64,000 nucleotides of DNA from an uncultured bacterium (GCA_963801165.1 CAWDDT010000011.1:32001-96000), one strand, 5' to 3'; counted from the stretch's first letter, positions 2,312 to 43,351 are shown. Program-made: numbers and translations. The notes: a model not told the origin generated them from the sequence alone.

Positions 2312-2320
2312 GTGGTGATT

Positions 2321-4318: not shown

Positions 4319-4516
4319 CAACGCACGATACCCCGCCGGTAACACCCAGAGGTGGATTCAATGGTCGGCGTAACAGGGGACTCCTCGTCCTGGCGCCTCA
4401 CGACGCAAATCCCCTCACCTGCCGTCGCCTGCGCTCGGCATCCTCGCCCGAGGGAAAGGCCATGTTTGGTCCCCTCCGCTCCAAAGGTCGGCCGGCCCGA
4501 GCCATTGGCTGGGTCG

Positions 4517-4615
4517 GCAGCCAAACTCAAACCTGAACCACGCCACCGCTGACGGGCTAGCTGAGTTTGGCGCAGCCAAACTCAAACCTAATTGAAGCCC
4601 TTTGGGCTTCAATTA
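4517..4615. repeat. Intergenic direct repeat plus two hairpins (REP-like or terminator)
   Basis: 18-bp direct repeat gcagccaaactcaaacct at 4517-4534 and 4572-4589; hairpin tgagtttggc-gca-gccaaactca at 4562-4584; perfect 12-bp inverted repeat taattgaagccc-ttt-gggcttcaatta at 4589-4615 overlapping the stop of the PDZ protease gene. Confidence 0.7.
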
Positions 4616-5719
4616 GGCGGCGCCCAGGGAATCGAGAAATGTCATCGCATCCTGGATGTTGGCCACCTCGATGACTTTGATGTCGTCGCCTGCGGCGTCG
4701 ACCGCCTCCAGGTAGTTCTCCGACGGGGCGAGCAGGTACTCGGCGCCTGCGGCGATGGCCCCAAATGTCTTCTGGCGCATCCCCCCGATGGGCCCTACCA
4801 CACCGTCGGCGTTGATCGTGCCGGTGCCGGCGATGCGGTGGCCATGGGTGATGTCCTCGGCGGTGAGCTCGTCGATGATCTCCAGGGTGAACATGAGGCC
4901 CGCCGAGGGACCACCGATGTTGCGGCTGTCGATGTTGACGTCGACGGGGAAATCGATCTGAACGTCGGCGTTTTGCAGCATCACGCCGACCATGCCCCGG
5001 TTGGGATCGTCGAGCACATTGCCTTTCTCATCGACAAACTTGTACGGCCCCAGCACCAGCGGGATATCAAGCGTGTCGACCTTGTCGGGCTCCGTGCGTT
5101 GGATCGTCAACACAAGCTGGTCGCCGGGAGCTCGCCCGCTGATCATGTCGACGGCATCCTTGGCGAACTCGACCTTCTTTCCATCGACCGCGATTATGAC
5201 GTCGCCGTCCTGGAGCACTCCGTCGGCAGCAGAGTCGGCGATGGTCGAGTTCACGAGCGCACCGGATCCATGATATGTCACGTCGTACCCGAGATAGGTG
5301 AGCGCGACGTACTTGGCGTCCTGCTTGGACTGGTCCATCAGGTTGATGTTCTGCTGGCGCAGCTCCTCCTCGCTCACTCCGGCGGGACGGATGTTCTCAC
5401 GCGGGGCGAGGTCGACATGGCTGTCCAACTTGGCGGCCACCCATTCGACGACGTTGACCTCTTGCAGTGACACCGTGAGGAACATCAACTCGCCCTTGGT
5501 GGTCGTAGACGGGTTGGCGACCTGCACGTAGTCGCTGACGTCGGCCACCGGTCCAGGCGAGAGCGCGTAGTAGGGCATTGATATCGGAATGGCAACGGCA
5601 GCGAAGATGAAAGCGCCGACGAGCATCATGACCCCGGCGAGAATGAACGGCCAAACCGGGATCCGCCGGCGCGGCGGAGTTGCCGGAAGTGGGGAGTCTG
5701 GGAGTTCGAGATCGTCCAT
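4613..5719 (-). CDS. PDZ domain Lon-like (S16) protease, YlbL family
   Basis: N-terminal TM helix, PYYALSPGP, PDZ segment (GVLQDGDVIIAVDG), Lon_C motifs IGGPSAGLMFTL and IAGTGTI...GPIGGMRQK. Confidence 0.92.
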   Translation of the reverse strand: MDDLELPDSPLPATPPRRRIPVWPFILAGVMMLVGAFIFAAVAIPISMPYYALSPGPVADVSDYVQVANPSTTTKGELMFLTVSLQEVNVVEWVAAKLDSHVDLAPRENIRPAGVSEEELRQQNINLMDQSKQDAKYVALTYLGYDVTYHGSGALVNSTIADSAADGVLQDGDVIIAVDGKKVEFAKDAVDMISGRAPGDQLVLTIQRTEPDKVDTLDIPLVLGPYKFVDEKGNVLDDPNRGMVGVMLQNADVQIDFPVDVNIDSRNIGGPSAGLMFTLEIIDELTAEDITHGHRIAGTGTINADGVVGPIGGMRQKTFGAIAAGAEYLLAPSENYLEAVDAAGDDIKVIEVANIQDAMTFLDSLGAA

Positions 5720-29018: not shown

Positions 29019-29779
29019 TGGATCTCGCCCTCAAGGTGTGGCGCCAGGACGGCCCCGACAAACCGGGAGAGTTCCGGGAGTACGAAGCCAAGGGCATCAG
29101 CCCCGAAGCGTCGTTCTTGGAGATGCTCGACCTGGTCAACGAACGACTCGTCATGGCCGGCGAGATACCCATCGAGTTCGATCATGATTGCCGGGAAGGG
29201 ATCTGCGGAACCTGCGGCGTCATGATCAACGGTCATCCGCACGGTGATCAGAAGGGCACCGCCACCTGCCAGCTCCATATGCGCAAGTTCAACGACGGCG
29301 ATCGCATCGTCATCGAGCCATGGCGGGCGCAGGGCATGCCGATCGTACGGGACCTCGTCGTCGACCGCTCGGCGCTCGATCGCATCGTTGAGGCGGGCGG
29401 CTACATCAGCGTCAACACGGGTGGGGCGCCCGACGCCAACCTGATCCCGGTGCCCAAGGAAGCATCTGAAGCGGCCATGGACGCGGCCGCGTGCATTGGT
29501 TGTGCCGCCTGCATCGCCGCATGCCCCAACAGTGCCGGGCAGCTGTTCACGGCGGCGAAGCTGGCTCACCTGAACCTGCTCCCCCAGGGCCAGCCCGAGC
29601 GGTACCAGCGCACGGTCGCGATGGTGGAGAAGATGGAGGAGTTCTTCGGCTCCTGCACCAACCACGCCGAGTGTGAGCAAGCCTGCCCCAAGAGCATCAG
29701 CATCGACAACATCGCACTCATGAACCGCGATTACATGATCGCCAAGTTCAAAGACCGCAGAAAGGCCGGCCAGGCCTGA
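29018..29779 (+). CDS. sdhB: Succinate dehydrogenase iron-sulfur subunit
   Basis: TAATG overlap; [29 protein letters not shown]. Confidence 0.95.
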
Positions 29780-30028
29780 GCTTCGCTCAGCCTCGAGCCA
29801 CGCCCTCCAGCCGGACTCCGCCGATGGCTCGAGGGGATTGTGGTGAATGGCGTGGGGCGTGTTCCGGTGATCTCGTCCCTGCTGCGGATGCCCTTTCGAG
29901 GAAGGTTCAGTCGGAGCAGGTCGGGCGATACCGTTCGGGTGGCGCCTCGAGCATCTTTTGGACCGAACGCTCAAATTTTGCCGTCGCCGCTACAATCCCG
30001 AACGACGGCAAACAGAAGGATTCCCAGA

Positions 30029-30415
30029 ATGGGCGTGAAGTTCCTGAGCGACGACCACCTTACGGCAGCGACCACTGCCCTCGGCGCCAACGGCGCCTTC
30101 TCCAACTCAATCGCCAACATCGACATGGGCATCCAATTCCATGTCACCGAGGCACCCGAAGGCGAGATCGATTTCTACCTCAATGTGAGCGACGGGTCCG
30201 CCACGATGGCAGCCGGCGAGTTGGACGGCGCCGACGTAACCATCACCAGCAGCCATGAAACGGCACTCGCTCTCTTCAACGGCGACCTCAACACCCAGAT
30301 GGCATTCATGACCGGCAAGATCAAGGTCGCCGGCAACCTGGCCGTCCTCATGATGAACCAGGGTGTCATCAACCAGTGGGCCGCCACCATGGCAGAGGTC
30401 GACGTCGAGGCTTGA
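30029..30415 (+). CDS. SCP2 sterol-binding domain protein
   Basis: ADVTI, AFMTGKIKVAGN; RBS gaagga before ATG 30029. Confidence 0.88.
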   Translation: MGVKFLSDDHLTAATTALGANGAFSNSIANIDMGIQFHVTEAPEGEIDFYLNVSDGSATMAAGELDGADVTITSSHETALALFNGDLNTQMAFMTGKIKVAGNLAVLMMNQGVINQWAATMAEVDVEA

Positions 30416-30508
30416 GCCGGCTCAGCCGGGCCCGGCGGAAACCCGGTATCAACCCGACCAGATACGCATCTCTTCTATAGGCTTGTCCAAAGCCGGGAGG
30501 AGTGTCCG

Positions 30509-32293
30509 ATGTGGGATCAGTATCTGGCCGATCGTGGTGATCCGTGGGACTACGACCCGGGCCCGCCCCGTAATCGCAGCTGGCCACGGTTGTTTGCCGA
30601 CACACCCAACTACCGGGCCATCGGCGTCGACCTGACCGGGAGGGAATCGTTTCGGTGGCATTTCGGCCCGATGTTCTATCGAGGCCGGCTCGGAGACAAC
30701 GAGGTCAAGGTCCTCGTCGTCGGGCAGGAGGGGGCACAGGACGAGTCGCTCTCGCACCGCTCGTTCACCGGCGGCACCGGCGCCCGCATGCAATATCTGC
30801 TCGAGCACATCGGCCTCACCCACTCGTATCTCTTTCTCAACACGTTCGTGTACCCGATCTTCGGCCAATACCACGACTCCTTGCGACCGCTTGCCCAGGA
30901 CCCGGCATCACCAATAGTCGCCCACCGTCACGAAATTCTCGACTACCTCGTGGCACGGAACGATCTGAGGCTGGTGATTGCGGTTGGCCGCGCCGCCAAG
31001 GAGACGATCGCCACGTGGATCAAGTCGCACGGCGGGACGGCGCAACCCGAGAGCCTGCACACCGCACACGCCAATGTGATCGACCCTCACCTCAAGGCAC
31101 TCGGCGTTCTCCATCCCGGAGGAGCTACCAAAGGTGGCTCGGTGAGCGCAATCATCGCCGACTTCAAGACGGCAATCCGGCGCATCGAGCGTTGGAACCG
31201 CGACGACGCCTCCTGGCTGCCGCCCGATCCGGGAGCAGAGCGGCGCCCGGCGGACGACTATGCGTACAGGTCGGCGCCGATTCCGTTCCGCGACCTGCCC
31301 TACGGTGTCGCCTGGCGCCTGGGCCGGGGTGCCACCTCGAGCAACAGGAGCAGCGACCAGCGCTCCATCCAGATCTTCTCGGCCGACGGCAAGTACAACA
31401 ACCGGGGAGACAGTCTCTCCTATCTCTCGAATGCCGACGGTTCTGCAGACGGATACAGCCAGGACGCCGGCGACCTCCCGTACGAGCCTCCCAAACACGA
31501 CTACCGCGACTTCGATCGGGGCCCGAGCCGGTCGCTCGCTCAGCTTCTCGCCGGCGGATCGCCCGGTCTTCCCTGGCCCGATTTCTCGTCGCTCGGGCTG
31601 CACTGCCACCCATCCTTCGGGCTGGGACCGATCTATCGCGGCAAGCTACACCGGCCCTCTGTCGTGGTCCTGGCCGACCAACAGTCGTACGACGACCTGT
31701 TCACGTGCCGGGCACTTACCGGCGACGGAGGTCAGCATCTGCAGGCATTCCTGCGCGCAGCAGGGTTGACCGAGAACTACGCCATCTTGCGGGTGCTCCC
31801 GGTCGACACGCTCGCCGAGAGCTCCACAACGGTCCGGTCCGCGGTTGACCACCCCACGACGAGAGCTCTCCACGCGGCCATCGTGGCGCGGCTCGCTCCC
31901 ACGGTCGTCGTCGTCGCCGGCCCCCAGGCACGGCGCCTCGCCGGTCACCTGTCGCTTGCGGCGCCGATCGTCGAGATGAAGGCGTCCGGCCAGAGTGGGT
32001 ATACCGCCGACTGGAGACGGGCGCTGCACGAGCTGGAATCGCTCAGCTACCCCAGGGACCTCGCCCACCCGGCCTTCGACTATCAGGGCGAGCGGGAGCA
32101 GATCCCACGCCGGGACCTCCCGTTCGGGACGCTCCGCTGGCAAGGCACATCGGGGGACCGGGCGTTGCAGGCACAGCACGGAGGCAAGCCGTCGTACGAC
32201 TATTACAAGCTCGTTATGCCCAAATGGGCCTACCAGCTCGTTCCCGAGCCGCTCACGGCCCGGGAACGCCACGCTCTCGACCCGCTGCGGTGA
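30509..32293 (+). CDS. Protein with two tandem uracil-DNA glycosylase-like domains
   Basis: Domain 1: GPMFYRGRL..VLVVGQEGAQDE...SFTGGTGARMQ..L...G....YLFLNTF ... VIAVG ... LHPG. Domain 2: GPIYRGKL..VVVLADQQSYDD...ALTGDGGQHLQAFL..AG...Y..L. Confidence 0.75.
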   Translation: MWDQYLADRGDPWDYDPGPPRNRSWPRLFADTPNYRAIGVDLTGRESFRWHFGPMFYRGRLGDNEVKVLVVGQEGAQDESLSHRSFTGGTGARMQYLLEHIGLTHSYLFLNTFVYPIFGQYHDSLRPLAQDPASPIVAHRHEILDYLVARNDLRLVIAVGRAAKETIATWIKSHGGTAQPESLHTAHANVIDPHLKALGVLHPGGATKGGSVSAIIADFKTAIRRIERWNRDDASWLPPDPGAERRPADDYAYRSAPIPFRDLPYGVAWRLGRGATSSNRSSDQRSIQIFSADGKYNNRGDSLSYLSNADGSADGYSQDAGDLPYEPPKHDYRDFDRGPSRSLAQLLAGGSPGLPWPDFSSLGLHCHPSFGLGPIYRGKLHRPSVVVLADQQSYDDLFTCRALTGDGGQHLQAFLRAAGLTENYAILRVLPVDTLAESSTTVRSAVDHPTTRALHAAIVARLAPTVVVVAGPQARRLAGHLSLAAPIVEMKASGQSGYTADWRRALHELESLSYPRDLAHPAFDYQGEREQIPRRDLPFGTLRWQGTSGDRALQAQHGGKPSYDYYKLVMPKWAYQLVPEPLTARERHALDPLR

Positions 32294-32297
32294 CGAC

Positions 32298-35200
32298 ATG
32301 GCACCAACCCCGATCGACCAACCGCTGAGCCCCACCTACGTCCTGGACGGCAGGGTGGTGACGATGAACGCCACGTTCGACGTGATCGACCGGGGCCGGG
32401 TCTATGTCGCTGCGGGAGCGATCGTGGCGGTGACCCCGGACGACGCTCCCCCGCCCGACGGCTTCGCAGGCGCGCCGCTCATCCGCACCGGAGCAACGAT
32501 CTACCCGGGGATGATCGAGCTGCACAACCACCTCAGCTACGACGTGCTCCCGCTCTGGCAGGTGCCCCGCCGCTATGGAAACCGCGGCAACTGGCGCGAC
32601 AGTCCGGATAAGAAGAGGCTCATCAGCGGGCCGATGAAGGTGTTGGGCAGCACCGCCGGCGTCATCGAGGCGATCGTCCGCTACGTCGAAGCGAAGGCGC
32701 TGTTGGCCGGGGCCACGACATCGCAGGGAATCACGCTGATCAACACGGCGATACCCCACCACTACCGGGGGATCGTCCGCAACGTCGAACAGACCGAGGA
32801 CCCCGAGCTGCCCAACGCCAGCACCCGGGTAGGCGACGTGACGGACGCGGTCGCCTTCAAGAAGCGACTGGAGAAGTCGTCCACACTGCTTCTGCACCTG
32901 GCCGAGGGTGTTGACAACACCGCCCGGGAGCAATTCAAGGCGCTCAAGATCAAGGCCAGAGACTGGGCAATCACCGATGCTCTCGCCGGCATCCATTGCG
33001 CCGGGCTGGTGGGTCGTGACTACGCCACCCTGCGCAGCCGCGGCGGGACAATGGTGTGGTCGCCGCTGTCCAACCTGCTGCTATACGGCGGCACTGCTGA
33101 CATCCAGCGTGCCGTCGACGAAGGCGTTCTGATCGCCCTTGGCTCAGATTGGTCACCGAGCGGGAGCAAAAACCTTCTCGGCGAGCTGAAGGTCGCCAAA
33201 CTCGTCAACCATCTGGCCGGCGACCCCCTATCCGCCCGCGACATCGTCGCCATGGCAACCATCAATCCTGCCCGTATTGTCAAGTGGGACAAGGCGCTCG
33301 GGTCGATCGAGCCGGGCAAGCGAGCGGACCTGATCGTGATCGATGACCGGGGCGGCGATCCCTACGACCACATCATCGAGGCCCGCGAGAGCACGGTAAC
33401 TCTTGCGGTCATCAACGGGGTGCCCCGGTACGGCCAGCAGCGTTTGATGAAGAGGTTCCCGGGGACAACCGAGTCATTCGACCTCGACGGCTCGAAGCGC
33501 GCCTTCAACTTCGCACAGGAGACCGCAGACCCCGTCGTCGCAGCCATGTCACTCGAGGAGGCGGCAGGACGACTCGAGGAGGCGATGAGCCGGGTCCCAG
33601 ATCTCGCCCGCGCCCTCGCCGACCCGATAGCGGCGCGCACCGCGTTCGGCATCACGGCCGCCGGTCAACCCGGCCGGTGGGTTCTCGACCTCGACAACGA
33701 GGGATCCGACCACCTGGCGCTCGCCCCCGACTCTTTCGCCGAGCGGCTGATCGCCGGGGAGAGCGATGTTCTCGACCAAACCCTCGGGGGTATCCGGCTC
33801 GACCCGCTTTCGATCGTCCAGGACGGCGAGTTCTTCCAGCGCATCTCCAACCAGACGAACCTACCGCCTCTCCTGGTCGAGGAGCTGCCGAAGTACTACG
33901 GGCGGACGGCACCCGCCCCCGATCCAAGCGTGGTGGGGATGACGACGGCCGACACCATACCGGTCCCCGAGCGCGGGCCGGCAACGGTGGCCGAGCTGAA
34001 CCGGGCCACCGGACTGTTGTCGCTCGAAGATCGCAAGCTGCTCGTCGACCAGGCGCGGGTGCTGCTGGAGGATGCTTACGTGCACCTGCAGTTGAAGCGG
34101 TCGATGCATGCGGTCGAGCCGATCCAGCGCCTCCGGCTCCTCCGCCACGAGCTGGAGCGGAACACAGAGAGCAGCGTCGAGCCGGAAGCCCAGTTTCACC
34201 GCAAGCTCACCGAGATCTTCACCGACCTACGCGACCTACACACCAACTACCTGCTTCCCTCACCATTCAAGGAACACACCGCCTTTCTCCCCTTCCTCGC
34301 CGAGGAATGCTTCGACCCCGATGGCACGGCGCACTACCTGGTGACGAAGCTGGCTCCCGACTTCAACCATCCGACGTTCACACCCGGCGCCGAGCTGCTC
34401 TACTGGAACGGGACCCCGATCCGGGCCGCAATCCAGGCCAATGCCGACCGCCAGGCAGGTAGCAACCCGGCCGCTAGTTTCAGCCGTGGCCTCGATGCCC
34501 TCACCATCCGACCCCTCATTCGCTCCCTCCCACCCGACGAGGAATGGGTGGTAATCACCTACCGCGCCGCCGACGGCAGGGAGCTCGAGCTACGACTCGA
34601 CTGGAAGGTCTGGGCGCCGGGGGATGCTCCGGGTGTCGATCCCGACGGCGGGGCTTCGATGGACACCGCGGCCACCCTCGGATACGACATCCAGACGGAC
34701 GCGGTCAACCAGGCGCGCAAGATGCTCTACGCCCCGGCGTCCATCAGGGCGGAAACCTCCATCGGTGCGCGTATGGTCGACATGGGCGCCGATGTCCTGG
34801 CAACGACGATGCCGACCATCTTCCGCGCCAGGGAAGTCACCACACCTGCCGGTACCTTTGGCTATGTCCGGATATTCAGCTTCAACGTTCCCGACGCCGA
34901 CGGGTTTGTCGCCGAGTTCGTCCGCCTCGCCGAGCAGCTGCCCGGCTCCGGGCTGATCATCGACGTCCGCAACAACGGGGGCGGGCTGATCACCGCCGCC
35001 GAGCGGCTGCTCCAGGTGCTCACCCCGCAAAGGATCGAGCCCTCGCCCGCGCAATTCGCGACGACGCCGCTCATGCGCAGGTTGGTCGAAGGACATTCTC
35101 CGTCGCCGCTCGACGCCACATTCGACCTGAGCGCCTGGGAACCGTCGATCGATCTCGCCGTGCAGACCGGGGCGGCCTATTCGACCGCCCACCCGATCAC

Positions 35201-35855
35201 CGAGCCCTCCTCTGCGAACACCATCGGCCAGCGCTACCACGGCCCCGTCGTGCTGATCACAGATGCCCTGTGCTACTCGGCAACCGACATGTTCGCAGCC
35301 GGATTCCAGGATCACGACATCGGCTCGGTCGTAGGCGTTGCCGACGCCACGGGAGCCGGTGGCGCCAACGTGTGGACCCACGAGCTGTTGCGGGCGCTTC
35401 TCGCCGCCACCGGTGACAACCCCCTCGCGCCGCTCCCGCACGGCGCCGGGATGCGGGTGGCGGTGCGGAGGACGCTCCGGGTGGGCGCACAGTCGGGAAC
35501 ACCGGTCGAGGACCTCGGTGTGGTGCCGAATGTGCGGCACAGGATGACCGCACGTGACGTCCTCGAAGACAACCAGGATCTGATAGCCACCGCCGCCGGC
35601 CGGCTGGCAGGGCAACCGGCATATGTGCTGCAAGGGGACCTTGCAGTGGAAAGTGGTCGCACAACCCTGCGGGTGACGACGGGCAACGTCGACCGCGTCG
35701 ACGTTGCATTCGACGACCGCGTGGTCGCCACCTACGACGTAGCAGATGGCACCAAGACCTGGCGACCCACCGGCCATTCACCGAAACGGATCATACGTCT
35801 GACGGGATACGCGGGGGACAGGCTCGTCGCCGCCCGGGTTCTCGAGGTCCCGTAA
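32298..35855 (+). CDS. Amidohydrolase (deaminase-like)-S41 peptidase fusion, no signal peptide
   Basis: ATG 32298, 4 nt after the upstream stop. PGMIELHNH, LHLAEG, IHC, WSPLSN, LGSDW, GSIEPGKRADL (amidohydrolase); FGYVRIFSF, IIDVRNNGGG, CYSATDMFAAG, TGAGG (S41). Confidence 0.85.
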   Translation: MAPTPIDQPLSPTYVLDGRVVTMNATFDVIDRGRVYVAAGAIVAVTPDDAPPPDGFAGAPLIRTGATIYPGMIELHNHLSYDVLPLWQVPRRYGNRGNWRDSPDKKRLISGPMKVLGSTAGVIEAIVRYVEAKALLAGATTSQGITLINTAIPHHYRGIVRNVEQTEDPELPNASTRVGDVTDAVAFKKRLEKSSTLLLHLAEGVDNTAREQFKALKIKARDWAITDALAGIHCAGLVGRDYATLRSRGGTMVWSPLSNLLLYGGTADIQRAVDEGVLIALGSDWSPSGSKNLLGELKVAKLVNHLAGDPLSARDIVAMATINPARIVKWDKALGSIEPGKRADLIVIDDRGGDPYDHIIEARESTVTLAVINGVPRYGQQRLMKRFPGTTESFDLDGSKRAFNFAQETADPVVAAMSLEEAAGRLEEAMSRVPDLARALADPIAARTAFGITAAGQPGRWVLDLDNEGSDHLALAPDSFAERLIAGESDVLDQTLGGIRLDPLSIVQDGEFFQRISNQTNLPPLLVEELPKYYGRTAPAPDPSVVGMTTADTIPVPERGPATVAELNRATGLLSLEDRKLLVDQARVLLEDAYVHLQLKRSMHAVEPIQRLRLLRHELERNTESSVEPEAQFHRKLTEIFTDLRDLHTNYLLPSPFKEHTAFLPFLAEECFDPDGTAHYLVTKLAPDFNHPTFTPGAELLYWNGTPIRAAIQANADRQAGSNPAASFSRGLDALTIRPLIRSLPPDEEWVVITYRAADGRELELRLDWKVWAPGDAPGVDPDGGASMDTAATLGYDIQTDAVNQARKMLYAPASIRAETSIGARMVDMGADVLATTMPTIFRAREVTTPAGTFGYVRIFSFNVPDADGFVAEFVRLAEQLPGSGLIIDVRNNGGGLITAAERLLQVLTPQRIEPSPAQFATTPLMRRLVEGHSPSPLDATFDLSAWEPSIDLAVQTGAAYSTAHPITEPSSANTIGQRYHGPVVLITDALCYSATDMFAAGFQDHDIGSVVGVADATGAGGANVWTHELLRALLAATGDNPLAPLPHGAGMRVAVRRTLRVGAQSGTPVEDLGVVPNVRHRMTARDVLEDNQDLIATAAGRLAGQPAYVLQGDLAVESGRTTLRVTTGNVDRVDVAFDDRVVATYDVADGTKTWRPTGHSPKRIIRLTGYAGDRLVAARVLEVP

Positions 35856-35904
35856 AGACAGACCCGTAAAGACAGACCCGTAAAGACAGACCCGTAAAGA
35901 CAGA
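35849..35904 (+). repeat. 14-bp tandem repeat, 4 copies
   Basis: Perfect unit cccgtaaagacaga; the first copy contains the TAA stop of the fusion gene. Confidence 0.95.
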
Positions 35905-35933
35905 TCGGCAAGCGACTGAGTAGTCGCGAGCGC

Positions 35934-36212
35934 CTATCCCGCCCCGACTGAATCCTTGAACGCGTTTCCCGGGCGAAAGACGGGCACGGTCCTGGGTGGT
36001 ATCGGCACGGCGACACCGGTACGTGGATTGCGACCGGTGCGGGCTTGCCGGGCCTTCGGCTCAAACGTGCCAAACCCGCTGAGTGTCACCGAGCCATCGG
36101 CCGCCACCGCGTCGATGATGGCTTCCATCATGGCCTCGATCGTGGCCGAGACCGCAACCTTGGTCTGGCCGGTCCGGGCTGCTACCTCGTCGATGAGATC
36201 CGCCTTGTTCAC
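35934..36212 (-). CDS. hup: HU family DNA-binding protein
   Basis: (M)NKADLI...GFGTF...ARTGRNPRTG...PVFRPG; RBS aggag before GTG 36212. Confidence 0.95.
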   Translation of the reverse strand: MNKADLIDEVAARTGQTKVAVSATIEAMMEAIIDAVAADGSVTLSGFGTFEPKARQARTGRNPRTGVAVPIPPRTVPVFRPGNAFKDSVGAG

Positions 36213-36313
36213 GCACCCGCTCCTGTATGTCTGCCTCGGCAAGACCATACCCAGGCGAACGCCGCCACCCAAGGATGTCGCGACCCACCAACCAGGGCTT
36301 GCCAGCTATGTGA

Positions 36314-37075
36314 TCAGCCGAGGCTGAAGTAGCGAGGCTCGTCTCCCGGGGCGTTCAGGTACAGCTCGAGGCCGGCGGCGACGTCCGCGCTGGCCACCGG
36401 CATACAGATGTGCGCCGTGAAACTCTCTCCCGGCAGGGCCTCGAGAACGTCGTAGAGCGAATCGGGCACCACGCCGCAGCCGGGAATCGACGGGAGATAC
36501 TGCTTGTCACCGGCGACCACCGCCCACTCGAACACCGGCTCGGCAACGTTGTTGCCGAGGTACGTTCCCTCGATTGTCACCAGCACGTCCTGGTAGCCGG
36601 GCTCCGGCTTGGGGTTGATATCGGCGAAGCCGAGGACGGTGTCGGTCGCATCGAGCTCCACGTTGGTCAGAGCTATGTCCCACACGCCGGGATCGGCCTC
36701 GATCACCTCGCCGACCGGAACCGGATCGGTCTCCGTCGCCTCCGCTGTGGTACGGGGCAAACGCTCGTCTATTGGAGGGGGCGGAATCGTGGTGGTGGTA
36801 GTAGTAGTGGTGGTAGTGACTTCGATCGTCGTCCCGGTCTCAGGCTGGGCGGCGGTCGTAGTGGTCGTCGCCGCTCCCGCCACGGCCGCGCTGGTGGTGG
36901 CAACAGTCGACGTGGTGGCACCAGTCGACGGGTTGTCGGCGGTCTCAGCTGCGCCGGCCGCTACCGTCGTGGCAGTCGGCTCCGAACTCGTCGTCGATCC
37001 CCCGCCCACGGCTATCCAGACACCAACAACCGCGACGAGAGCCGCAACAGCGGCCAGAATCCACCCTCGTCTCAC
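36314..37075 (-). CDS. Membrane-anchored/secreted Thr-rich protein with C-terminal Ig-like (DUF4352-like) domain
   Basis: N-terminal hydrophobic helix, poly-Thr linker, DPVPVG...NPKPEPG...VLV..EGTY.G; coupled to the upstream large gene. Confidence 0.7.
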   Translation of the reverse strand: MRRGWILAAVAALVAVVGVWIAVGGGSTTSSEPTATTVAAGAAETADNPSTGATTSTVATTSAAVAGAATTTTTAAQPETGTTIEVTTTTTTTTTTIPPPPIDERLPRTTAEATETDPVPVGEVIEADPGVWDIALTNVELDATDTVLGFADINPKPEPGYQDVLVTIEGTYLGNNVAEPVFEWAVVAGDKQYLPSIPGCGVVPDSLYDVLEALPGESFTAHICMPVASADVAAGLELYLNAPGDEPRYFSLG

Positions 37076-40000
37076 TGACAGCCGCCGGCGGCATATCCAA
37101 CAGAGGCGTCGAAGATCGACCAGATATCAGCATTCCAGTTGAGGACAGACGTGTTGTAGGCAGAAACATGGAGCCGGCACCCTGCCGCCGTTGAACCATC
37201 GGCGAGTAGGGCTCCACTCTGATAGACGAAGCTGGTCGGCAGATCATTGGCAGTGACAACTACGGTCGACTCTCCGCCGGGGACGCCAAAAGACCACGTC
37301 TTGTTGGAGGTCCCCGCAACCACGTTACCGGTGAAGCCGCCGGCGAGCGGATGGTTGTCGTCGACGATCGCCAACACGCTCGCCGTCGTCGAGCCATAGT
37401 CCGTCCCCGAGACCGGCCCGGTCATGCCCATGTCGTCGAGCAACCACGGCTTGGCCACCCAGACGGGCACCGAGACTCCGGCATACATGTCCCGCACCAG
37501 ATTCGCATTCACAGACGATGAAATCAGCACAAACGACGCACCGACCGCGTCGGCAGCCGTTGCGTTGTTGTCGTCGACAACAACAACGGTGTATCCGTCA
37601 CTCGTCATGCGATCCCGTACCGCGACGTCCCCGGTGGCGAGATTGGTGGCATCGCCGACGATCATCTTGATGATTCCGCTTGCTGTGTTGTCGACGGTAA
37701 TCGCCACCGAGTCGGATGCGGTGCGGCTCATGGTGTCTGTAGCCGTCGCCGAGACCGTCACCGGCCCGTCGGCGGCCGTGGTCGTGTCCCAATCCCACGA
37801 CCAGCCGTCGGTGCCGTCACTGTCAACGCCGAGAGATGCACCGTCTGCGAAGAACTCGACCTGGGTAACCGTCGGATCGGAACCGGTATCGGCGACAACC
37901 GCCACCGTATCGTGGAGAGTTGCGCCGGCGGGTGGCGATGTGATCGTCACCTGCGGGCCCTGGTTGTCGACAGTCACAGTCACAGATCCGCTTCGAGTAT
38001 GAGACGCGGTATCGGTGGCGACCGCGGTGACGGTGATCTGCCCGTCTGCACCGCCGGTGGTATCCCAGTCGGCCGACCAGCCGTCACCGCCGTTAGTGTC
38101 GACACCAATCGACGCACCGTCTGCCAGGAACTCGACCTGAGTCACGGCGACGTCGTCTGTGGCGTCGGCGGTCACCGTGACAACACCGGACACGGTTGCT
38201 CCGTCGGCCGGTGCCGTCACCGCTGCGGTGGGAGGATTGTCGACCGGTGGCGCCACGCAGCCGTTGGCCGCGTAGGCCACCGTGTTATCGAACAACGCCC
38301 AACCGTCCGTCGAGAACCTCACGGGAGCATCGGCGAATATCGAATAGTGGAGCCGGCATCCCGCCGCGGTGGACCCGTCGGCGAGCGTGGCTCCCGCGGA
38401 GTAGACGAACAACGTGGGCTTGCCGGCGGTGGTCCCCACCACATCGGCACCCGGGCCGGGTACGCCAAAGGACATGGTCCGGTTCCAGGTGGTCACCGTC
38501 ACATCTCCCGTAAGGCCTGCCGCAAGGGGGTGACCGGGTTCGGTGATCGTCACAGTATCGTGGAGAAGCGTTCCGTAGTCGGTGCCGGCAGCTGTGCCGG
38601 TCATTCCCATGTCGTCGAGCAGGTACGGCTTGGCGACCCATACCGGTTCGGGCACGTCGGCCAGTTTGTCCTTGATGAGGTTGGCATTGACTGTGGACGA
38701 CAGGATGACAAGCGCGGACCCCGTAACCGAGCCCGCCGTCACAACACCGTCATCGACCTCGCTCACGGTGTAGCCGAGACCTTCGAGCTCCGTCACCATG
38801 GCGTTTTCCCCGGCCTGGAGCGAAGTCGGGTCGGCGACGACAACGACGATCACGCCGGCAGAGTTGTTGCTAACGGTCACGGCCGCTTGATCCGACGACG
38901 TCCTACCGAACGAGTCGGTGCCAACGACACTCACCGTTGCAGGCCCGTCCGATGCCGATGTGGTATCCCACGTGATCGACCAGCCGTCGCCTCCATTGTT
39001 ATCAACGCCGATAGAAGCGCCGTCGACGAAGAACTCGGCCTGCGCCACCCCGACATCGTCGGTGACGGTTGCGGAAACGGACAAGGACCCCGAGATCGTC
39101 GCCCCGTCCACCGGGACGGTGAGAGTCGTCGTCGGCCCGAGGTTGTCGACAGTGATCGAAACGGAGTCCGTAGCTTGCTGACCGCCCCCGTCGAATGCAG
39201 TGGCCGCGACCGTGGCATTGCCGTCGGCGGCCGTCGTGCTGTCCCAGTCAACGGACCAGCCGTCACTCCCGTCGTTGTCCACACCGACCTGGGCGCCATC
39301 GACGGTGAACTCGACACGGTCCACAGCGATGTCATCCGAAGCATCGGCGCTGAACGTCACGTTTCCTGCGACCGCGTCGCCGTCACCCGGTGTCGTCAGG
39401 GAAACGGTCGGCTGTGAGTCGATCGACAGGAGGAAGATGTCCGTGTTCGCCCAGTCCCGGCCGTCGCCCGCCGCAGGGCCGCTGATCAGGGTCTGCGTGC
39501 CCGACACCGGGATGTCACCGGAAAGATCGATCGAGTACATATTGCCGCTAGATGTCGTGTAGTAGAGCTTTCCGTCGGCTGCGGTCATACCACGCGTGCT
39601 GGACCAGTCGAGACCGTCGCCGTCGCCGCTCACCACGTACTCCCTGTTGCCGACGATGCCGGACTCCAGAGAGAAGTACCGGTAGCGCAGCCGGGAGCTC
39701 CCGCTCAAGGTGTAGTACAGCTTGCCCTGCGACCAGGCGGCCGACGTTGCGCCGCTCCAGTCGAACCAGGACGGCTCGGTGCGTGCCGTCCCCATCGTGA
39801 CACCATCGAACGGCCTCGACTGAAGGGCACCGCTGGTGTCCGTCCAGTACAGCCTGCCCGCCTGATAGAACGCCCCGTTGACCTGGGCCCAGTCGATTAC
39901 GTTGCCGGGGACCGTGGCGGGAGTGCCCGCCGAAATGCCATCAAACGTCTCGACGGTGAGCGTGCTCCCGTCGCCGGCAAACAGGTCTGTCGGCAATGTC

Positions 40001-41313
40001 GGCGCCGTAGGCACAGGTACAGAGGAGCCTCCGGTGAGGGGGAACTGAGCCAGCTTGGGGTGGTACTCGCCCGCGGTGAAGTCGGTGTCGGAGCCAACGT
40101 AGAGCCCGCGGTTGGAGAGGTGCAGATCCCAGACCGCAACCCCGCGGTCCTTGCCGGGGTTCCACGACAGCGGCACGCCGTTGATGGGATCGAGCGCGCC
40201 GATCCCGGGGCGGGACACCGCCCCGGCCGCGGCGCTGTCGAACCCCAGGTAGTTGTTCAGCCACCGCTGGTGGCCCCCGACGTAAACGCTGACGTCGGAA
40301 ATGGCAACGGCTGTGAGAGTGTCGCCCCCGGTCCAATCGACCCAGGTCTCGGCGACGGCCGCACCTCGCTGACCGCTCTCCCACCTGGACGCTGAATCAC
40401 ACAACGACGGGTAGTGGGGACCACCGGTCGTGACGATCACGAAATAGGCACTGTCGGGTGAGTACTCGACATCACGAACGTAGGTCCAGAAACTCGACGA
40501 GCAGGCGGCACCGAACGCGTCAGTCGACCAATTGGCGAGCTGGGCCGTCGGCCCGCTCAGATCGATCACCGCCACCTGGGAACGAGGTTGGTTGTCCACC
40601 TCGGAGAAATTGCCGACGATGGTCATCTCGGAGCCGTCCGGGCTGACCGCCAGCTCCGCCACCCAGTCGACGCTCACCCTGGGGGCGGTCGTACCGATCG
40701 TGAACGAGGGGTCAACGACGCCTGTAGTCGCATCGACGGCGGCGAGCCGGGCCCGGGGCACGCCGTTTACAGACCAGATGTCACCGCCCATGTACAGGGT
40801 GTTGCCACTGACCTCGATATCACGAACCCTGCCCGCGGTGGTGGCGTTGAACCCGGCCACCCGCTGGCCCGTGCCGACGCTCAGCTTGGTCAGACCGAAA
40901 TTCGACACCCCGTTCACGTTTGCGAACACGCCACCGACAAACACCGAGGTCCCGTCCGGAGCTGGTGCGAGCGTCTCGACCTCGCCGTCGAGCTGGGGAA
41001 CGAAGTTGGTATCGATCTGACCGGTCACCGGGTCGTAGGCGAAGATGTAGTTGCGGGTCAGGTCTGCCGGGACACCGACGTTGCGTACGGTGTGGAAGGT
41101 GCCACCGACGATGACCCGGTCGCCGACGGTCACGATGGCGGTGACGTGGCCATCCATCACGTAAGGAGTGTTGTCGACCGGGTCGGCGGATACGACGATC
41201 CCCTGGTTCAGATGACTGGCCTCGACCGGGGCGACACCGATAACGCCGAATACCGTCAACGCCGTCAGCAACGCCGTAGCGAGCGCGACTGCCCTACCGC
41301 CTCTGGATGTCAT
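37072..41313 (-). CDS. Large secreted surface protein: beta-propeller-like N-terminus, four bacterial Ig-like domains and two copies of an unknown module
   Basis: Signal peptide from ATG 41313; VGG.F repeats; four P...T.P..GA...VEF.VDG...DGWS..WD.T..ADG units; duplicated ~200-aa module (PVWVAKP.LLDDMGMTG...HPLA.G...AAGCRLH). Confidence 0.85.
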   Translation of the reverse strand: MTSRGGRAVALATALLTALTVFGVIGVAPVEASHLNQGIVVSADPVDNTPYVMDGHVTAIVTVGDRVIVGGTFHTVRNVGVPADLTRNYIFAYDPVTGQIDTNFVPQLDGEVETLAPAPDGTSVFVGGVFANVNGVSNFGLTKLSVGTGQRVAGFNATTAGRVRDIEVSGNTLYMGGDIWSVNGVPRARLAAVDATTGVVDPSFTIGTTAPRVSVDWVAELAVSPDGSEMTIVGNFSEVDNQPRSQVAVIDLSGPTAQLANWSTDAFGAACSSSFWTYVRDVEYSPDSAYFVIVTTGGPHYPSLCDSASRWESGQRGAAVAETWVDWTGGDTLTAVAISDVSVYVGGHQRWLNNYLGFDSAAAGAVSRPGIGALDPINGVPLSWNPGKDRGVAVWDLHLSNRGLYVGSDTDFTAGEYHPKLAQFPLTGGSSVPVPTAPTLPTDLFAGDGSTLTVETFDGISAGTPATVPGNVIDWAQVNGAFYQAGRLYWTDTSGALQSRPFDGVTMGTARTEPSWFDWSGATSAAWSQGKLYYTLSGSSRLRYRYFSLESGIVGNREYVVSGDGDGLDWSSTRGMTAADGKLYYTTSSGNMYSIDLSGDIPVSGTQTLISGPAAGDGRDWANTDIFLLSIDSQPTVSLTTPGDGDAVAGNVTFSADASDDIAVDRVEFTVDGAQVGVDNDGSDGWSVDWDSTTAADGNATVAATAFDGGGQQATDSVSITVDNLGPTTTLTVPVDGATISGSLSVSATVTDDVGVAQAEFFVDGASIGVDNNGGDGWSITWDTTSASDGPATVSVVGTDSFGRTSSDQAAVTVSNNSAGVIVVVVADPTSLQAGENAMVTELEGLGYTVSEVDDGVVTAGSVTGSALVILSSTVNANLIKDKLADVPEPVWVAKPYLLDDMGMTGTAAGTDYGTLLHDTVTITEPGHPLAAGLTGDVTVTTWNRTMSFGVPGPGADVVGTTAGKPTLFVYSAGATLADGSTAAGCRLHYSIFADAPVRFSTDGWALFDNTVAYAANGCVAPPVDNPPTAAVTAPADGATVSGVVTVTADATDDVAVTQVEFLADGASIGVDTNGGDGWSADWDTTGGADGQITVTAVATDTASHTRSGSVTVTVDNQGPQVTITSPPAGATLHDTVAVVADTGSDPTVTQVEFFADGASLGVDSDGTDGWSWDWDTTTAADGPVTVSATATDTMSRTASDSVAITVDNTASGIIKMIVGDATNLATGDVAVRDRMTSDGYTVVVVDDNNATAADAVGASFVLISSSVNANLVRDMYAGVSVPVWVAKPWLLDDMGMTGPVSGTDYGSTTASVLAIVDDNHPLAGGFTGNVVAGTSNKTWSFGVPGGESTVVVTANDLPTSFVYQSGALLADGSTAAGCRLHVSAYNTSVLNWNADIWSIFDASVGYAAGGCQ

Positions 41314-41610
41314 AGAAATCTCCGTACCCCTTCTACCCCAACAAGCCTGGACCGACCGTAGCACCGGGCGCAACGAGCGTCACACGTCTACCCCAAAACG
41401 GGTGATACTGCTGGTCAAACCAAACACACCAGCTTATGGTGCCGACGCCAACGAGTGTTGAGCTGGCTCGGAGCGGGCTATGGAATGGCATTCCGAAACC
41501 TGCTCCGACGGCTTTTCAGGGGGTCGGGAACCCGTGGGCACGGGTTTCTGGTCGTGGTTGGGGGTAGCGCCTTGCGCTCAGGTAGGAACACGTAACCAGG
41601 AGAAGCTGAA

Positions 41611-42378
41611 ATGACGACAGCCCGACACGTCCGCGTCGACCGTCGGATCGAGGCACCGACCCGGTGGGCAGACATCATGCCGACGGTCAGCCTGATCATC
41701 CCGACGATCAACGAGGAACGAAACGTCGCAAACGTGCTGGCCCGCATCCCCGATTGGGTTCATGAGGTGATCCTCGTCGACGGTCTCTCCACCGACCGCA
41801 CGGTGCCACTTGCCCGGGCGTTGCGTCCGGACGTCAAGGTCGTCATGGAGTCCAACCCCGGCAAGGGCTCAGCGCTGATCGCAGGGTTCGCGGCAGCCAC
41901 CGGTGACATCATTGCCGCAATCGACGCCGACGGCTCGATGGATCCGGCCGAACTGCATAGCTTCATAGGACAGTTGGTTTCCGGTGCCGATTACGTGAAA
42001 GGCTCCCGGTTCGTCCAGGGAGGCGGAACCGTCGACATGGAGTGGCACCGCAGGCTCGGCAACTGGGGTCTGATGATGGCGGCGAAGATGCTGTTCGGCG
42101 GCAACTACTCCGACCTCTGCTACGGCTATTTCGCCTTCTGGCGCGATGCCTTGCCGCTGCTCGACCCCGATGTGCCTGGTTTCGAGATCGAGACGCAGAT
42201 CAACGTGCGAGCGCTTCGGGCAAACCTCAAGATCGCTGAGGTGCCCAGCTTCGAAGAGCGCCGCCTTCACGGCGTCAGCAATCTTCACGCATGGCGCGAT
42301 GGGCTCCGTATCCTGCGCACCATCATCAGGGAGCGATTCTCCCGTCGTAAGCTTCCGCCCGTCATCGACCTGCGGTAA
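41611..42378 (+). CDS. Glycosyltransferase family 2 (DPM1-like)
   Basis: SLIIPTINEE, VDGLSTD, GKG, IDADGS, KGSRF, FEIETQ. Confidence 0.92.
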   Translation: MTTARHVRVDRRIEAPTRWADIMPTVSLIIPTINEERNVANVLARIPDWVHEVILVDGLSTDRTVPLARALRPDVKVVMESNPGKGSALIAGFAAATGDIIAAIDADGSMDPAELHSFIGQLVSGADYVKGSRFVQGGGTVDMEWHRRLGNWGLMMAAKMLFGGNYSDLCYGYFAFWRDALPLLDPDVPGFEIETQINVRALRANLKIAEVPSFEERRLHGVSNLHAWRDGLRILRTIIRERFSRRKLPPVIDLR

Positions 42379-42397
42379 CCGTCTCCCGAGGACAACC

Positions 42398-43351
42398 ATG
42401 GACAGGCCAACCGTGGCACACGGTCGCTCTATCGTGGTCTGCTGCTACACCAGCGACCGCTGGGATCGGCTTTCGGCCGCTATCGGAGCGACTGCCGATC
42501 AGATTTCTCCACCGGACGAGCTGATTGTCGTAGTCGACTACAACGAGGAGTTGCTGGCGCGCGTTCGCGCCGAGTTCGACGACCTCGCGATTGTGGCGGC
42601 CAACCGCCATGAATCGGGCTTGTCCGGAGCTCGGAACACCGGTGTCGAGCTTGCCTCCCAACCGATCGTGCTGTTTCTCGACGACGACGCGACACCCGCA
42701 CCCGACTGGGTCGACGCGCTCGCCGCTTCGTTCTCCGATCCCACGGTCGTCGGCGTCGGGGGTAGCGCCCGGCCCGACTGGGCGGGCGGTGAGCCGCCGT
42801 GGTGGTTTCCCGAGGAGTTCTTCTGGGTGGTTGGATGCAGCTACCGCGGTTTGCCCGAGCGCCGCGCCCCGATCCGGAACCCGATCGGGTGCAACATGGC
42901 ATTTCGCAAGGAAGCCATCTCACATGTGGGCGGGTTCTCGGCCGAACTAGGCCGTGTCAAGAACAAGCCGGCCGGCGCCGAAGAAACCGACCTCGCGATA
43001 AGGGTACGATCAGCGACCGGAGGAACCATCCTCTACGAACCCGATGCGGTCGTGCGGCATGCCGTCGGAGAATCACGGATGACACTGAGCTACTTCACCA
43101 AGAGATGCTACGGCGAGGGTCGCTCCAAGGCGGTTCTGGCCCGCCGGGTCGGTGCAGGCGACGCCACGTCTTCAGAGCGCTCCTACCTGAAGACTCTGGC
43201 CACGGGAGCGGCCTCGCGCCTCGGCCGGGTCGTCAGGACACGCCGGCTCCGGCCACTTGGCCAGGTGCTCGTGCTCGCGCTCGGTCTCGCGGCCACCGGG
43301 CTTGGGTTCACCGCCGGCACGATCGCCGACTTCGTAGGCAGCCGGCGATGA
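42398..43351 (+). CDS. Glycosyltransferase family 2
   Basis: GLSGARNTG, FLDDD, IGCNMAFR, EETDL; ATG 42398 after gagga. Confidence 0.9.
   Translation: MDRPTVAHGRSIVVCCYTSDRWDRLSAAIGATADQISPPDELIVVVDYNEELLARVRAEFDDLAIVAANRHESGLSGARNTGVELASQPIVLFLDDDATPAPDWVDALAASFSDPTVVGVGGSARPDWAGGEPPWWFPEEFFWVVGCSYRGLPERRAPIRNPIGCNMAFRKEAISHVGGFSAELGRVKNKPAGAEETDLAIRVRSATGGTILYEPDAVVRHAVGESRMTLSYFTKRCYGEGRSKAVLARRVGAGDATSSERSYLKTLATGAASRLGRVVRTRRLRPLGQVLVLALGLAATGLGFTAGTIADFVGSRR

Follow-up and report, generated by a model that had tools for sequence, protein, structure and literature searches.

A mobile gene module joining a tandem uracil-DNA glycosylase-fold protein, a deaminase-type amidohydrolase, and an interchangeable protease

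The window analyzed here is a stretch of 64,000 nucleotides (nt) from an uncultured bacterium (GCA_963801165.1 CAWDDT010000011.1:32001-96000), with a G+C content of about 64% all along it, and the subject of this report is a two-gene operon near its middle that encodes a tandem uracil-DNA glycosylase (UDG)-fold protein (gene 1) and a fusion of an amidohydrolase with an S41 protease (gene 2). A gap of 4 nt separates gene 1 from the ATG of gene 2 (32298). On the 5' side of gene 1 lie sdhC, sdhA, sdhB, and an SCP2 gene (29840-30415), and on the 3' side of gene 2 lies an HU gene (Bac_DNA_binding, E 6.9e-30) at 35934-36272. A sequence-only reading of this DNA had described the same arrangement, a two-gene operon with a 4-nt gap between SCP2 and HU genes and a tandem repeat at its end, and every element of it is present in the sequence; the strand of the HU gene is here corrected to minus, so that it converges on gene 2. 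That reading also saw no signal peptide or transmembrane helix in gene 2, and a 19-residue hydropathy scan finds none in either protein (maxima of 1.76 in gene 1, at an internal strand, and 1.26 in gene 2, which has no N-terminal hydrophobic stretch), and to judge from their sequences both proteins look cytoplasmic. The calculated isoelectric point is 7.9 for gene 1 (9.0 for its N half), and gene 2 is acidic (5.35). The two genes are divided as follows, in window positions.

30509-32293, plus strand: gene 1, 594 amino acids (aa), ATG start and TGA stop
30509-31408, plus strand: N module of gene 1 (aa 1-300), with motif A G72-Q-E74-G-A76, F109, N111, and H202-P, predicted to be active
31496-32236, plus strand: C module of gene 1 (aa 330-576), UDG fold with a remodeled pocket (A389-D-Q-Q-S...D-D, I426, R428)
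32298-35855, plus strand: gene 2, 1185 aa, amidohydrolase fused to a CPAF-like S41 protease
32328-33608, plus strand: amidohydrolase domain (aa 11-437), mononuclear deaminase type, with H76, H78, H200, E203, H233, and D284
33609-33998, plus strand: linker (aa 438-567), partly helical, with a predicted local distance difference test score (pLDDT) below 50 at 448-458, 466-493, and 543-559
33999-35618, plus strand: CPAF-like S41 serine protease (aa 568-1107), with S994 in YSATD and G895-G896
35619-35852, plus strand: C-terminal beta-sandwich (aa 1108-1185), all-strand in the model and without a Pfam match

These genes and their relatives encode three enzymes with essentially invariant active sites, carried together as a conserved mobile unit in which the protease slot can be filled by unrelated proteases.

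Gene 1 had been read as carrying two UDG-fold domains, and structure prediction, sequence comparison, and superposition find the fold in both halves. Pfam marks one domain only (UDG, PF03167; residues 62-173, E 1.1e-9) and gives no match to the C half. A profile built from 15 family members leads to a single PDB sequence, that of BdiUng, or Blr0248 (5gn2; E 1.9e-25), aligning residues 45-179 of gene 1 with BdiUng residues 29-158, and hhalign recognizes the N and C halves as homologs of one another (probability 98%, E 1.2e-13, 204 columns). With the AlphaFold2 model of gene 1, which has a mean pLDDT of 69 and low confidence in the packing between the two copies, Foldseek also places 5gn2 first (E 2.6e-10), with UdgX and family 4 UDGs next, and model residues 330-576 superpose on the whole BdiUng chain (VIA Z 19.9, root-mean-square deviation of 2.9 Å over 237 residues). 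Excerpts of its published description present BdiUng as a dimeric UDG of a “new class” having the motif A GQDPA, the catalytic residues D57 and H168, and a pocket formed by Q56, P58, A59, E62, L69, G71, A73, M92, and N94, and excising uracil, 5-hydroxymethyluracil, and xanthine with a preference for single-stranded DNA (PMC5449639).

The counterparts of BdiUng residues in gene 1 are Q73, E74 (for D57), G75, A76, E79, F86, G88, F109 (for M92), and N111. Conservation was counted over 73 full-length homologs from the fetched loci, in all of which the aligned pocket residues of the N module are invariant, as is H202-P203, found at the expected motif B region beyond residue 179, where the 5gn2 profile alignment stops. 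Motif A of gene 1 is GQEGA, not GQDPA, and Glu74 occupies the catalytic-Asp position in 73/73. When the C copy is set against the N copy, hhalign pairs Q391 with E74, I426 with F109, and R428 with N111, and the C-copy residues D390, Q391, D395, D396, and R428 are kept in 71 to 73 of the 73 homologs. Sequence and model together describe gene 1 as a probable single-chain pseudo-dimer with one catalytic-type pocket and a second one that is remodeled but constrained. The linker between the modules (aa 260-337; window 31286-31519) is highly conserved, with many invariant aromatic, Gly, and Pro residues, yet its pLDDT stays under 50; it may serve for partner binding or as a site of cleavage, or the low score may come from a shallow alignment. 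More than 1000 clusters are homologous to gene 1, the best 120 of them being 574 to 630 aa long and 59 to 96% identical.

Gene 2 was modeled with a mean pLDDT of 82.6 and matches two Pfam families, Amidohydro_1 (E 7.8e-22) and Peptidase_S41 (E 3.5e-18). The metal ligands named from the sequence alone, H76-N-H78, H200-L-A-E203, H233, and S283-D284, were confirmed, with the S41 part fused behind them; H76 and H78 are kept in 69/70 homologs, and H200, E203, H233, and D284 in 70/70. The structures nearest to the barrel (VIA Z 28.6-27) are deaminases of the methylthioadenosine/S-adenosylhomocysteine/adenosine type, 4dzh (28.6), 4gbd, 4f0r, and TM0936, together with AtzA; isocytosine deaminase, TrzN, and guanine deaminase rank lower, the whole range being Z 25-28.6, and the sequence matches of the domain agree with these structural neighbors. 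No NCBIfam equivalog was reached among those scored (guanine, 5'-deoxyadenosine, and 8-oxoguanine deaminase and TRZ/ATZ), the best scores being 74, 70.7, 68.4, and 62.2 bits against cut-offs of 540, 522, 375, and 532. By sequence and model, the domain is best described as a (beta/alpha)8 one-metal member of the deaminase/chlorohydrolase group.

Behind a linker that has no Pfam match (aa 438-567), the protease (aa 573-1107) finds CPAF as its best Foldseek match (3dor, E 4.1e-24), and VIA ranks an uncharacterized Bacteroides protease (4ghn, Z 25.2) beside CPAF (3dpn, Z 24.6 over 460 residues). The NCBIfam CPAF model matches at 1e-16, with 60.7 bits against an equivalog cut-off of 250. S994 and G895-G896 are conserved in 54/54 homologs each; H648 (51/54) and E1071 (53/54) are candidate triad partners, and H634 and H596 are conserved too. 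Excerpts of the CPAF literature describe that protease as produced in the form of a self-inhibited zymogen (PMC4734761).

The genes belong together elsewhere. Among 41 genomes of the same order, gene 1 occurs in 8, namely in 7 of the 15 members of the genus and, more weakly matched and at the end of a contig, in a member of another genus. Ten genomes have strong matches to gene 2, which adjoin gene 1 in 8 of them and in the other 2 are fragments on short contigs (3.5 and 1.9 kb). Two of these genomes (G027 and G038) gave weak paralog matches only, and the generic amidohydrolase paralogs of genomes that lack gene 1 (E 1e-16 or weaker over about 120 residues) were not counted as partners. A scan of one genome per species across 185,579 species gave 251 relatives, from which 77 loci were kept, making 78 with the window. 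They span at least nine phyla, with 51 to 72% identity to gene 1, and include Actinomycetota (several classes), Chloroflexota, Acidobacteriota, Gemmatimonadota, Gammaproteobacteria, Planctomycetota, Bacteroidota, and Campylobacterales. On the points that the sequence-only reading had put forward for checking, the genes are linked in these genomes, in both fused and separate forms: an amidohydrolase adjoins gene 1 in 73/78 loci and an S41 protease is present in 58/78, distributed as follows.

Amidohydrolase and S41 protease fused: 23/78 loci
Amidohydrolase and S41 protease split at another point: 1/78 loci
Three-gene form, with separate amidohydrolase (about 517 aa) and S41 (about 616 aa) genes that often overlap by 4 nt: 34/78 loci
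Amidohydrolase without S41: 12/78 loci
Cut by a contig end, the amidohydrolase still visible in 3: 5/78 loci
Gene 1 alone: 3/78 loci

Further clusters of flanking open reading frames (ORFs) reach at most 15 loci, all of which are from Ilumatobacteraceae. Gene 1, with a mean column identity of 68%, is the slower-evolving member; amidohydrolase identity ranges from 32 to 77% across the loci in which gene 1 ranges from 51 to 72%. Within a sample of 401 Actinomycetota genomes, 9 encode the full tandem protein and 6 encode single-domain BdiUng-like genes, three of which, L108 (G403:C3), L109 (G159:C253), and L113 (G146:C948), adjoin an amidohydrolase of the gene 2 type (33 to 35% identity over about 350 to 365 residues, E 1e-47 to 1e-51) with no S41 protease. 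The pairing of a UDG with the amidohydrolase therefore predates both the tandem fusion and the protease. Two loci carry lesions, a gene 2 homolog that matches in three pieces and two frames, suggesting a frameshift (G014:C7:573445-576792), and a gene 1 homolog with an internal TAA (G132:C411:18332-20119); these reflect either decay of the module in some genomes or assembly errors.

Loci that lack S41 show how the protease is exchanged. Scanning their flanks with Pfam (63 and 16 ORFs), we found another protease beside the module in 5 of the 12 loci that have the amidohydrolase without S41: a caspase-like Peptidase_C14 gene (E 7.5e-15) overlapping the start of gene 1 in L071, a subtilase (E 4.8e-38) ending 40 nt before gene 1 in L090 and in the syntenic L091, a metzincin-type protein with the motif HEIGHMLGLPH (weak Reprolysin_4) between gene 1 and the amidohydrolase in L068, and in L087 a CHAT protein on the opposite strand, one gene removed. 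M20, Rce1-like, and PD40/DPPIV genes lie near three of the remaining seven. Two S41-bearing loci have an additional protease just upstream, caspase-like in L095 and a subtilase in L064. In the first of these, from a Campylobacterales metagenome-assembled genome (L095, 1697-9261), two HisKA_2 genes bracket the module, and caspase-like and baseplate/VgrG-like genes stand ahead of it; the surroundings of the second include AAA_16, GDSL lipase, and patatin genes. A shared adaptor domain that would link the alternative proteases to the S41 protein was looked for and rejected, a BLASTP comparison of 17 neighbor proteins with each other and with genes 1 and 2 giving one weak caspase-caspase match only.

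The module is horizontally mobile and self-contained. Its boundaries in the window, together with two smaller features, are given below.

30416-35933, no strand assigned: inserted segment of 5.5 kb that holds the entire module and runs between the stop codons of SCP2 and HU
30416-30508, plus strand: leader of gene 1, 93 nt, with GGGAGGAG 6 nt 5' of the ATG, as read from the sequence
35849-35904, plus strand: perfect tandem repeat, 14 nt x 4 (CCCGTAAAGACAGA), with a Tandem Repeats Finder score of 112

Three congeners (G002, G005, and G006) keep the order sdh-SCP2-HU with SCP2-HU distances of about 20, 540, and 13 nt and no module in between, which marks the 5.5-kb segment as an insertion in this genome; in G005, G008, and G013 the module lies on contigs other than that of SCP2. 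Direct or inverted repeats flanking the insertion were not seen, and no transposon-like ends were found. The module is rare, occurring in 9/401 and 1/401 genomes of two phylum samples (Actinomycetota and Pseudomonadota, respectively). Marks of mobility or conflict accompany about 6 of 32 other loci, a count that has no matched control, and consist of a serine recombinase (L072), IS110 (L030), methylases (L090 and L091), AAA_16 with patatin (L064), and baseplate with caspase genes (L095).

The leader of gene 1 has no Rfam match at E ≤ 1 (29500-36500 scanned), and no sigma-70-like site; a scan for promoters and terminators gave 0 promoter-like sites and terminator-like sites at chance level. Riboswitch control of gene 1 was considered and set aside, none being found ahead of gene 1 in the 19 loci scanned; the S-adenosylmethionine (SAM) and molybdenum cofactor riboswitches detected at these loci belong to other genes on the opposite strand. 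Two of the SAM riboswitches stand just upstream of gene 1 in close relatives (L022, 1217-1307, minus strand; L023, 867-957, minus strand), on the opposite strand, and are a property of the divergent neighbor gene and not of the module. The 14-nt repeat starts within the last codons of gene 2 and covers its stop codon. It occurs once in the 4.55-Mb genome and is missing from all fetched relatives, and because it is unique to this genome it was rejected as a working part of the system, outside which it probably lies. Farther 3' in the window, a 253-aa protein that is rich in Thr and has a membrane or signal segment at its N terminus (36314-37075, minus strand) is encoded directly 3' of the gene for a secreted 1433-aa protein (37072-41373, minus strand) with four Big_7 Ig-like domains and two near-identical C-terminal halves, after which come glycosyltransferase genes (41611-43351).

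The wider family extends beyond these cytoplasmic proteins. A profile search of 1.84 billion representatives gave 670 proteins, 218 of them at E ≤ 1e-30, among which the cytoplasmic group of about 595 aa had apparently one near-full-length match (P0129). Exported relatives retain GQEGAQDE, NTF, and HPGG. Three homologs of 1105 to 1148 aa (P0124 to P0126; about 30% identity) are lipoproteins that carry either five HHH_3 repeats of the ComEA type or a pair of LTD domains, and these domains on distant tandem homologs indicate DNA as the substrate. Exported forms were absent from the 401-genome Pseudomonadota sample and were located at three metagenome loci, of which L114 alone had usable flanks; there the exported tandem UDG (1324-4695) has no amidohydrolase or S41 gene alongside, and a gene with SprT-like (HEMAH), DUF2786, and DUF7168 regions lies 18 nt downstream, the SprT-like Pfam match being weak and at the cut-off (E 1.2e-5).

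What such a module does can be proposed only tentatively. The reading that we place first, as possible though short of probable, is a mobile conflict module that would deaminate, excise, and proteolyze, acting on uracil-type bases in DNA. The pocket of gene 1, the activities of BdiUng, and the DNA-binding domains on relatives point to a uracil-type substrate, and the N module may flip and excise uracil-like bases, namely uracil, 5-substituted uracils, and possibly xanthine, probably from single-stranded DNA. Such a base would be held by Q73, N111, and H202 and by stacking on F109, Ala76 would leave room at C5, and Glu74 would replace the water-activating Asp, while the C module would be a conserved noncatalytic copy that stands in for the other subunit of dimeric BdiUng. 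The deaminase would act first, converting an amino base of the cytosine, adenine, or guanine type, in the nucleotide pool or in DNA, to an oxo base; the glycosylase would next remove the oxo base and leave abasic sites; and the interchangeable protease, here the fused S41, would control or execute the response. The deaminase is placed before the glycosylase because uracil, 5-hydroxymethyluracil, and xanthine are deamination products that have no amino group left, and for the same reason the reverse order, in which an excised base is then deaminated, is chemically unlikely for uracil-type bases. The role would be an anti-phage or anti-mobile-DNA one, possibly abortive, directed against noncanonical DNA. 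A conflict role is favored by the patchy, inserted, multiphylum distribution, by the effector-like swapping of proteases, and by the precedent of Brig3-BapA: in excerpts of the reports, Brig1, Brig2, and Brig3 are UDG-superfamily defense glycosylases, Brig3 forming an operon with BapA (10.64898/2026.02.25.707755; 10.1101/2025.10.29.685425).

Several observations weigh against a conflict module. PADLOC-DB 2.0 has 0 families for either protein at E ≤ 0.1, and searches of 72,556 plasmids, 50,697 phages, and IMG/VR gave no relative. In the window the flanks consist of core housekeeping genes (sdh, HU, PhoU/R/B, beta-oxidation, Mdh, Icd, FolD, and UvrD), those of the 32 other loci are heterogeneous and mostly of unrelated metabolism and regulation, and the G+C content of the module (0.645 to 0.664) equals that of its surroundings. 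With 51 to 72% sequence identity across phyla, gene 1 is unusually conserved for a defense gene; it stands alone in 3 loci, and 7 of the 12 S41-less loci have no recognized operonic protease. That the deaminase is acidic and resembles small-molecule enzymes speaks against its acting directly on DNA. A hydrophobic N terminus was seen in 45 of the 53 long representatives inspected (by a crude hydrophobic-run test), and Atlas clusters of exported forms are commonest in Bdellovibrionota, which we take as a lead only; the exported location of many relatives is a poor fit with anti-phage defense. The sequence-only reading is partly supported: the linkage, the fused and split forms, and the UDG fold stand, and the specific defense or signaling role that it attached to the genes is not shown. 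Four findings made here go beyond that reading, namely the exchange of the protease, the insertion of the pair in this genome, the BdiUng class of gene 1, and the exported look of many relatives.

A second explanation, scavenging of nucleic acid and protein, is favored almost as strongly, by the housekeeping surroundings, the lack of copies in mobile-element collections, the very high conservation, and the exported relatives, and we rate it only slightly below the first. The glycosylase would strip bases from imported or damaged (single-stranded) DNA, the deaminase would pass amino bases or nucleosides on to salvage or free ammonia from them, and the protease would degrade the protein that comes with the DNA, the whole being a cytoplasmic counterpart of enzymes that predators appear to export for digestion of their prey. 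This would accommodate the signal peptides or lipoboxes on distant relatives and the HHH_3 repeats or LTD domains on some of them, as well as the prominence of Bdellovibrionota. The enzymes structurally closest to the deaminase have free nucleosides or bases as substrates, the conservation of gene 1 is typical of metabolic enzymes, catabolic peptidases (S9, M19, and M20) and NUDIX genes lie near some loci, and a section heading of its description states that BdiUng does not rescue an Escherichia coli ung mutant (PMC5449639). Against scavenging stands the pocket itself, since a strictly uracil-type site (N111, H202, and F109 in 73/73) would release little from ordinary DNA, and the job is already covered by nucleases and nucleosidases. 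Caspase-like and CHAT proteases are untypical of catabolism, the conserved core includes no transporter or nuclease, the exported UDG of L114 has neither amidohydrolase nor S41 protease beside it, and the module is rare in both phylum samples.

A bolder form of the conflict reading, which we consider unlikely, is a protease-controlled machine that would destroy DNA by deaminating and excising its bases, acting inside the cell in an anti-phage or abortive manner or, in predators, outside it against prey DNA. The deaminase would make uracil-, xanthine-, or hypoxanthine-type bases out of amino bases of the nucleotide pool or, directly, of foreign or prey DNA. The protease would then be an interchangeable trigger or executioner, and the Glu-using, pseudo-dimeric glycosylase would be the obligate partner of the deaminase. 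If true, DNA base editing or destruction would for the first time involve an enzyme of the amidohydrolase fold, and immunity would have a new logic.

Specialized repair or sanitation, of DNA-protein or DNA-peptide crosslinks and of bulky or base-analog lesions, is less likely again. In this explanation the protease would trim the protein, the glycosylase would remove the adducted uracil-type base, and the amidohydrolase would destroy the released adduct or analog against re-salvage. One class of lesion handled by three hydrolases could be served by any general protease, in keeping with the four unrelated families that replace S41. SprT-like proteins are a family of crosslink proteases, and a homolog with their HExxH motif lies 18 nt downstream of the exported tandem UDG in L114; UdgX, which is related to UDG and appears in the structural matches, crosslinks to DNA according to PDB titles; and repair glycosylases are known that are accessory, spread horizontally, and counter natural-product genotoxins. 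However, the conserved core includes no helicase, nuclease, apurinic/apyrimidinic endonuclease, or ligase, the cell's own DNA is out of reach of the exported relatives, the SprT-like match is weak, and nothing links the amidohydrolase to adduct hydrolysis. Most improbable is a sensor along the lines of the sequence-only reading, in which a base freed from foreign DNA would bind to, or be converted by, the amidohydrolase and so switch on the fused protease: the 23 fused loci, the self-inhibited zymogens of CPAF-type proteases (in excerpts of PMC4734761), and the effector-like swapping of protease types would suit it, but the two are separate proteins in 34 loci, S41 is absent in 12, the UDG-amidohydrolase pairing occurs without any protease, uracil-type bases offer no amino group to remove, and the invariant catalytic set suits an enzyme better than a receptor.

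The combination had been put forward as one that is not a described system, and the full-text literature searched, subscription-only papers lying outside the search, indeed holds no description of UDG, amidohydrolase, and S41 together. The module is widespread yet unstudied, with more than 1000 clusters, at least nine phyla, and three invariant active sites, and it brings together a DNA glycosylase of a little-known class, a deaminase-type enzyme, and a protease. Should it prove to be a defense or killing device, it would extend glycosylase immunity to a three-enzyme design and might yield base-specific DNA tools; should it be catabolic or serve repair, it would represent a new route for the handling of DNA bases. 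In any case, the orphan BdiUng class gains a genomic partner and testable substrates.

Each part of the module resembles a known protein and departs from it. BdiUng (Blr0248 of Bradyrhizobium diazoefficiens) is the best match of gene 1 in both sequence and structure, and the two share the pocket design (Q, A at the Tyr position, E, N, and probably H), the lack of Fe-S cysteines, and, probably, a two-module assembly. BdiUng is a homodimer of 272-aa chains built from the N and C termini, whereas gene 1 is a single chain of 594 aa with two diverged copies, only the first of which keeps the catalytic set, and has GQEGA with Glu74 and Phe109 where BdiUng has GQDPA with Asp and Met92. The BdiUng paper reports no partner genes, and the words “amidohydrolase” and “operon” are absent from it (PMC5449639). 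The amidohydrolase has the same barrel and HxH/HxxE/H/D one-metal set as the COG0402-type deaminases (4dzh, 4gbd, 4f0r, TM0936, AtzA, Vcz, and guanine deaminase) but differs from them in aa 85-190 of its N-terminal third, which are divergent yet conserved within its own family, and in its constant pairing with a BdiUng-type UDG. The S41 part shares with CPAF (3dor and 3dpn) the fold and the conserved context of the Ser nucleophile; unlike CPAF, with which it has 17 to 19% identity and whose equivalog cut-off it does not reach, it has no secretion signal and is fused behind an amidohydrolase, and 4ghn fits it equally well.

As a system, the closest comparison is with the Brig glycosylases, drawn at the level of the shared superfamily fold only and from excerpts of the reports (10.64898/2026.02.25.707755; 10.1101/2025.10.29.685425). 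The module described here lies outside defense islands, unlike Brig-type systems. Like Brig3-BapA, it places a UDG-superfamily glycosylase in a tight or overlapping operon with a hydrolase, which in Brig3-BapA alters bases so as to enable the glycosylase and here is predicted to do likewise, and both have spread horizontally. The partner here is a metal-dependent, deaminase-type amidohydrolase instead of a glucosyl hydrolase, and to these two activities a third, that of a protease, is added.

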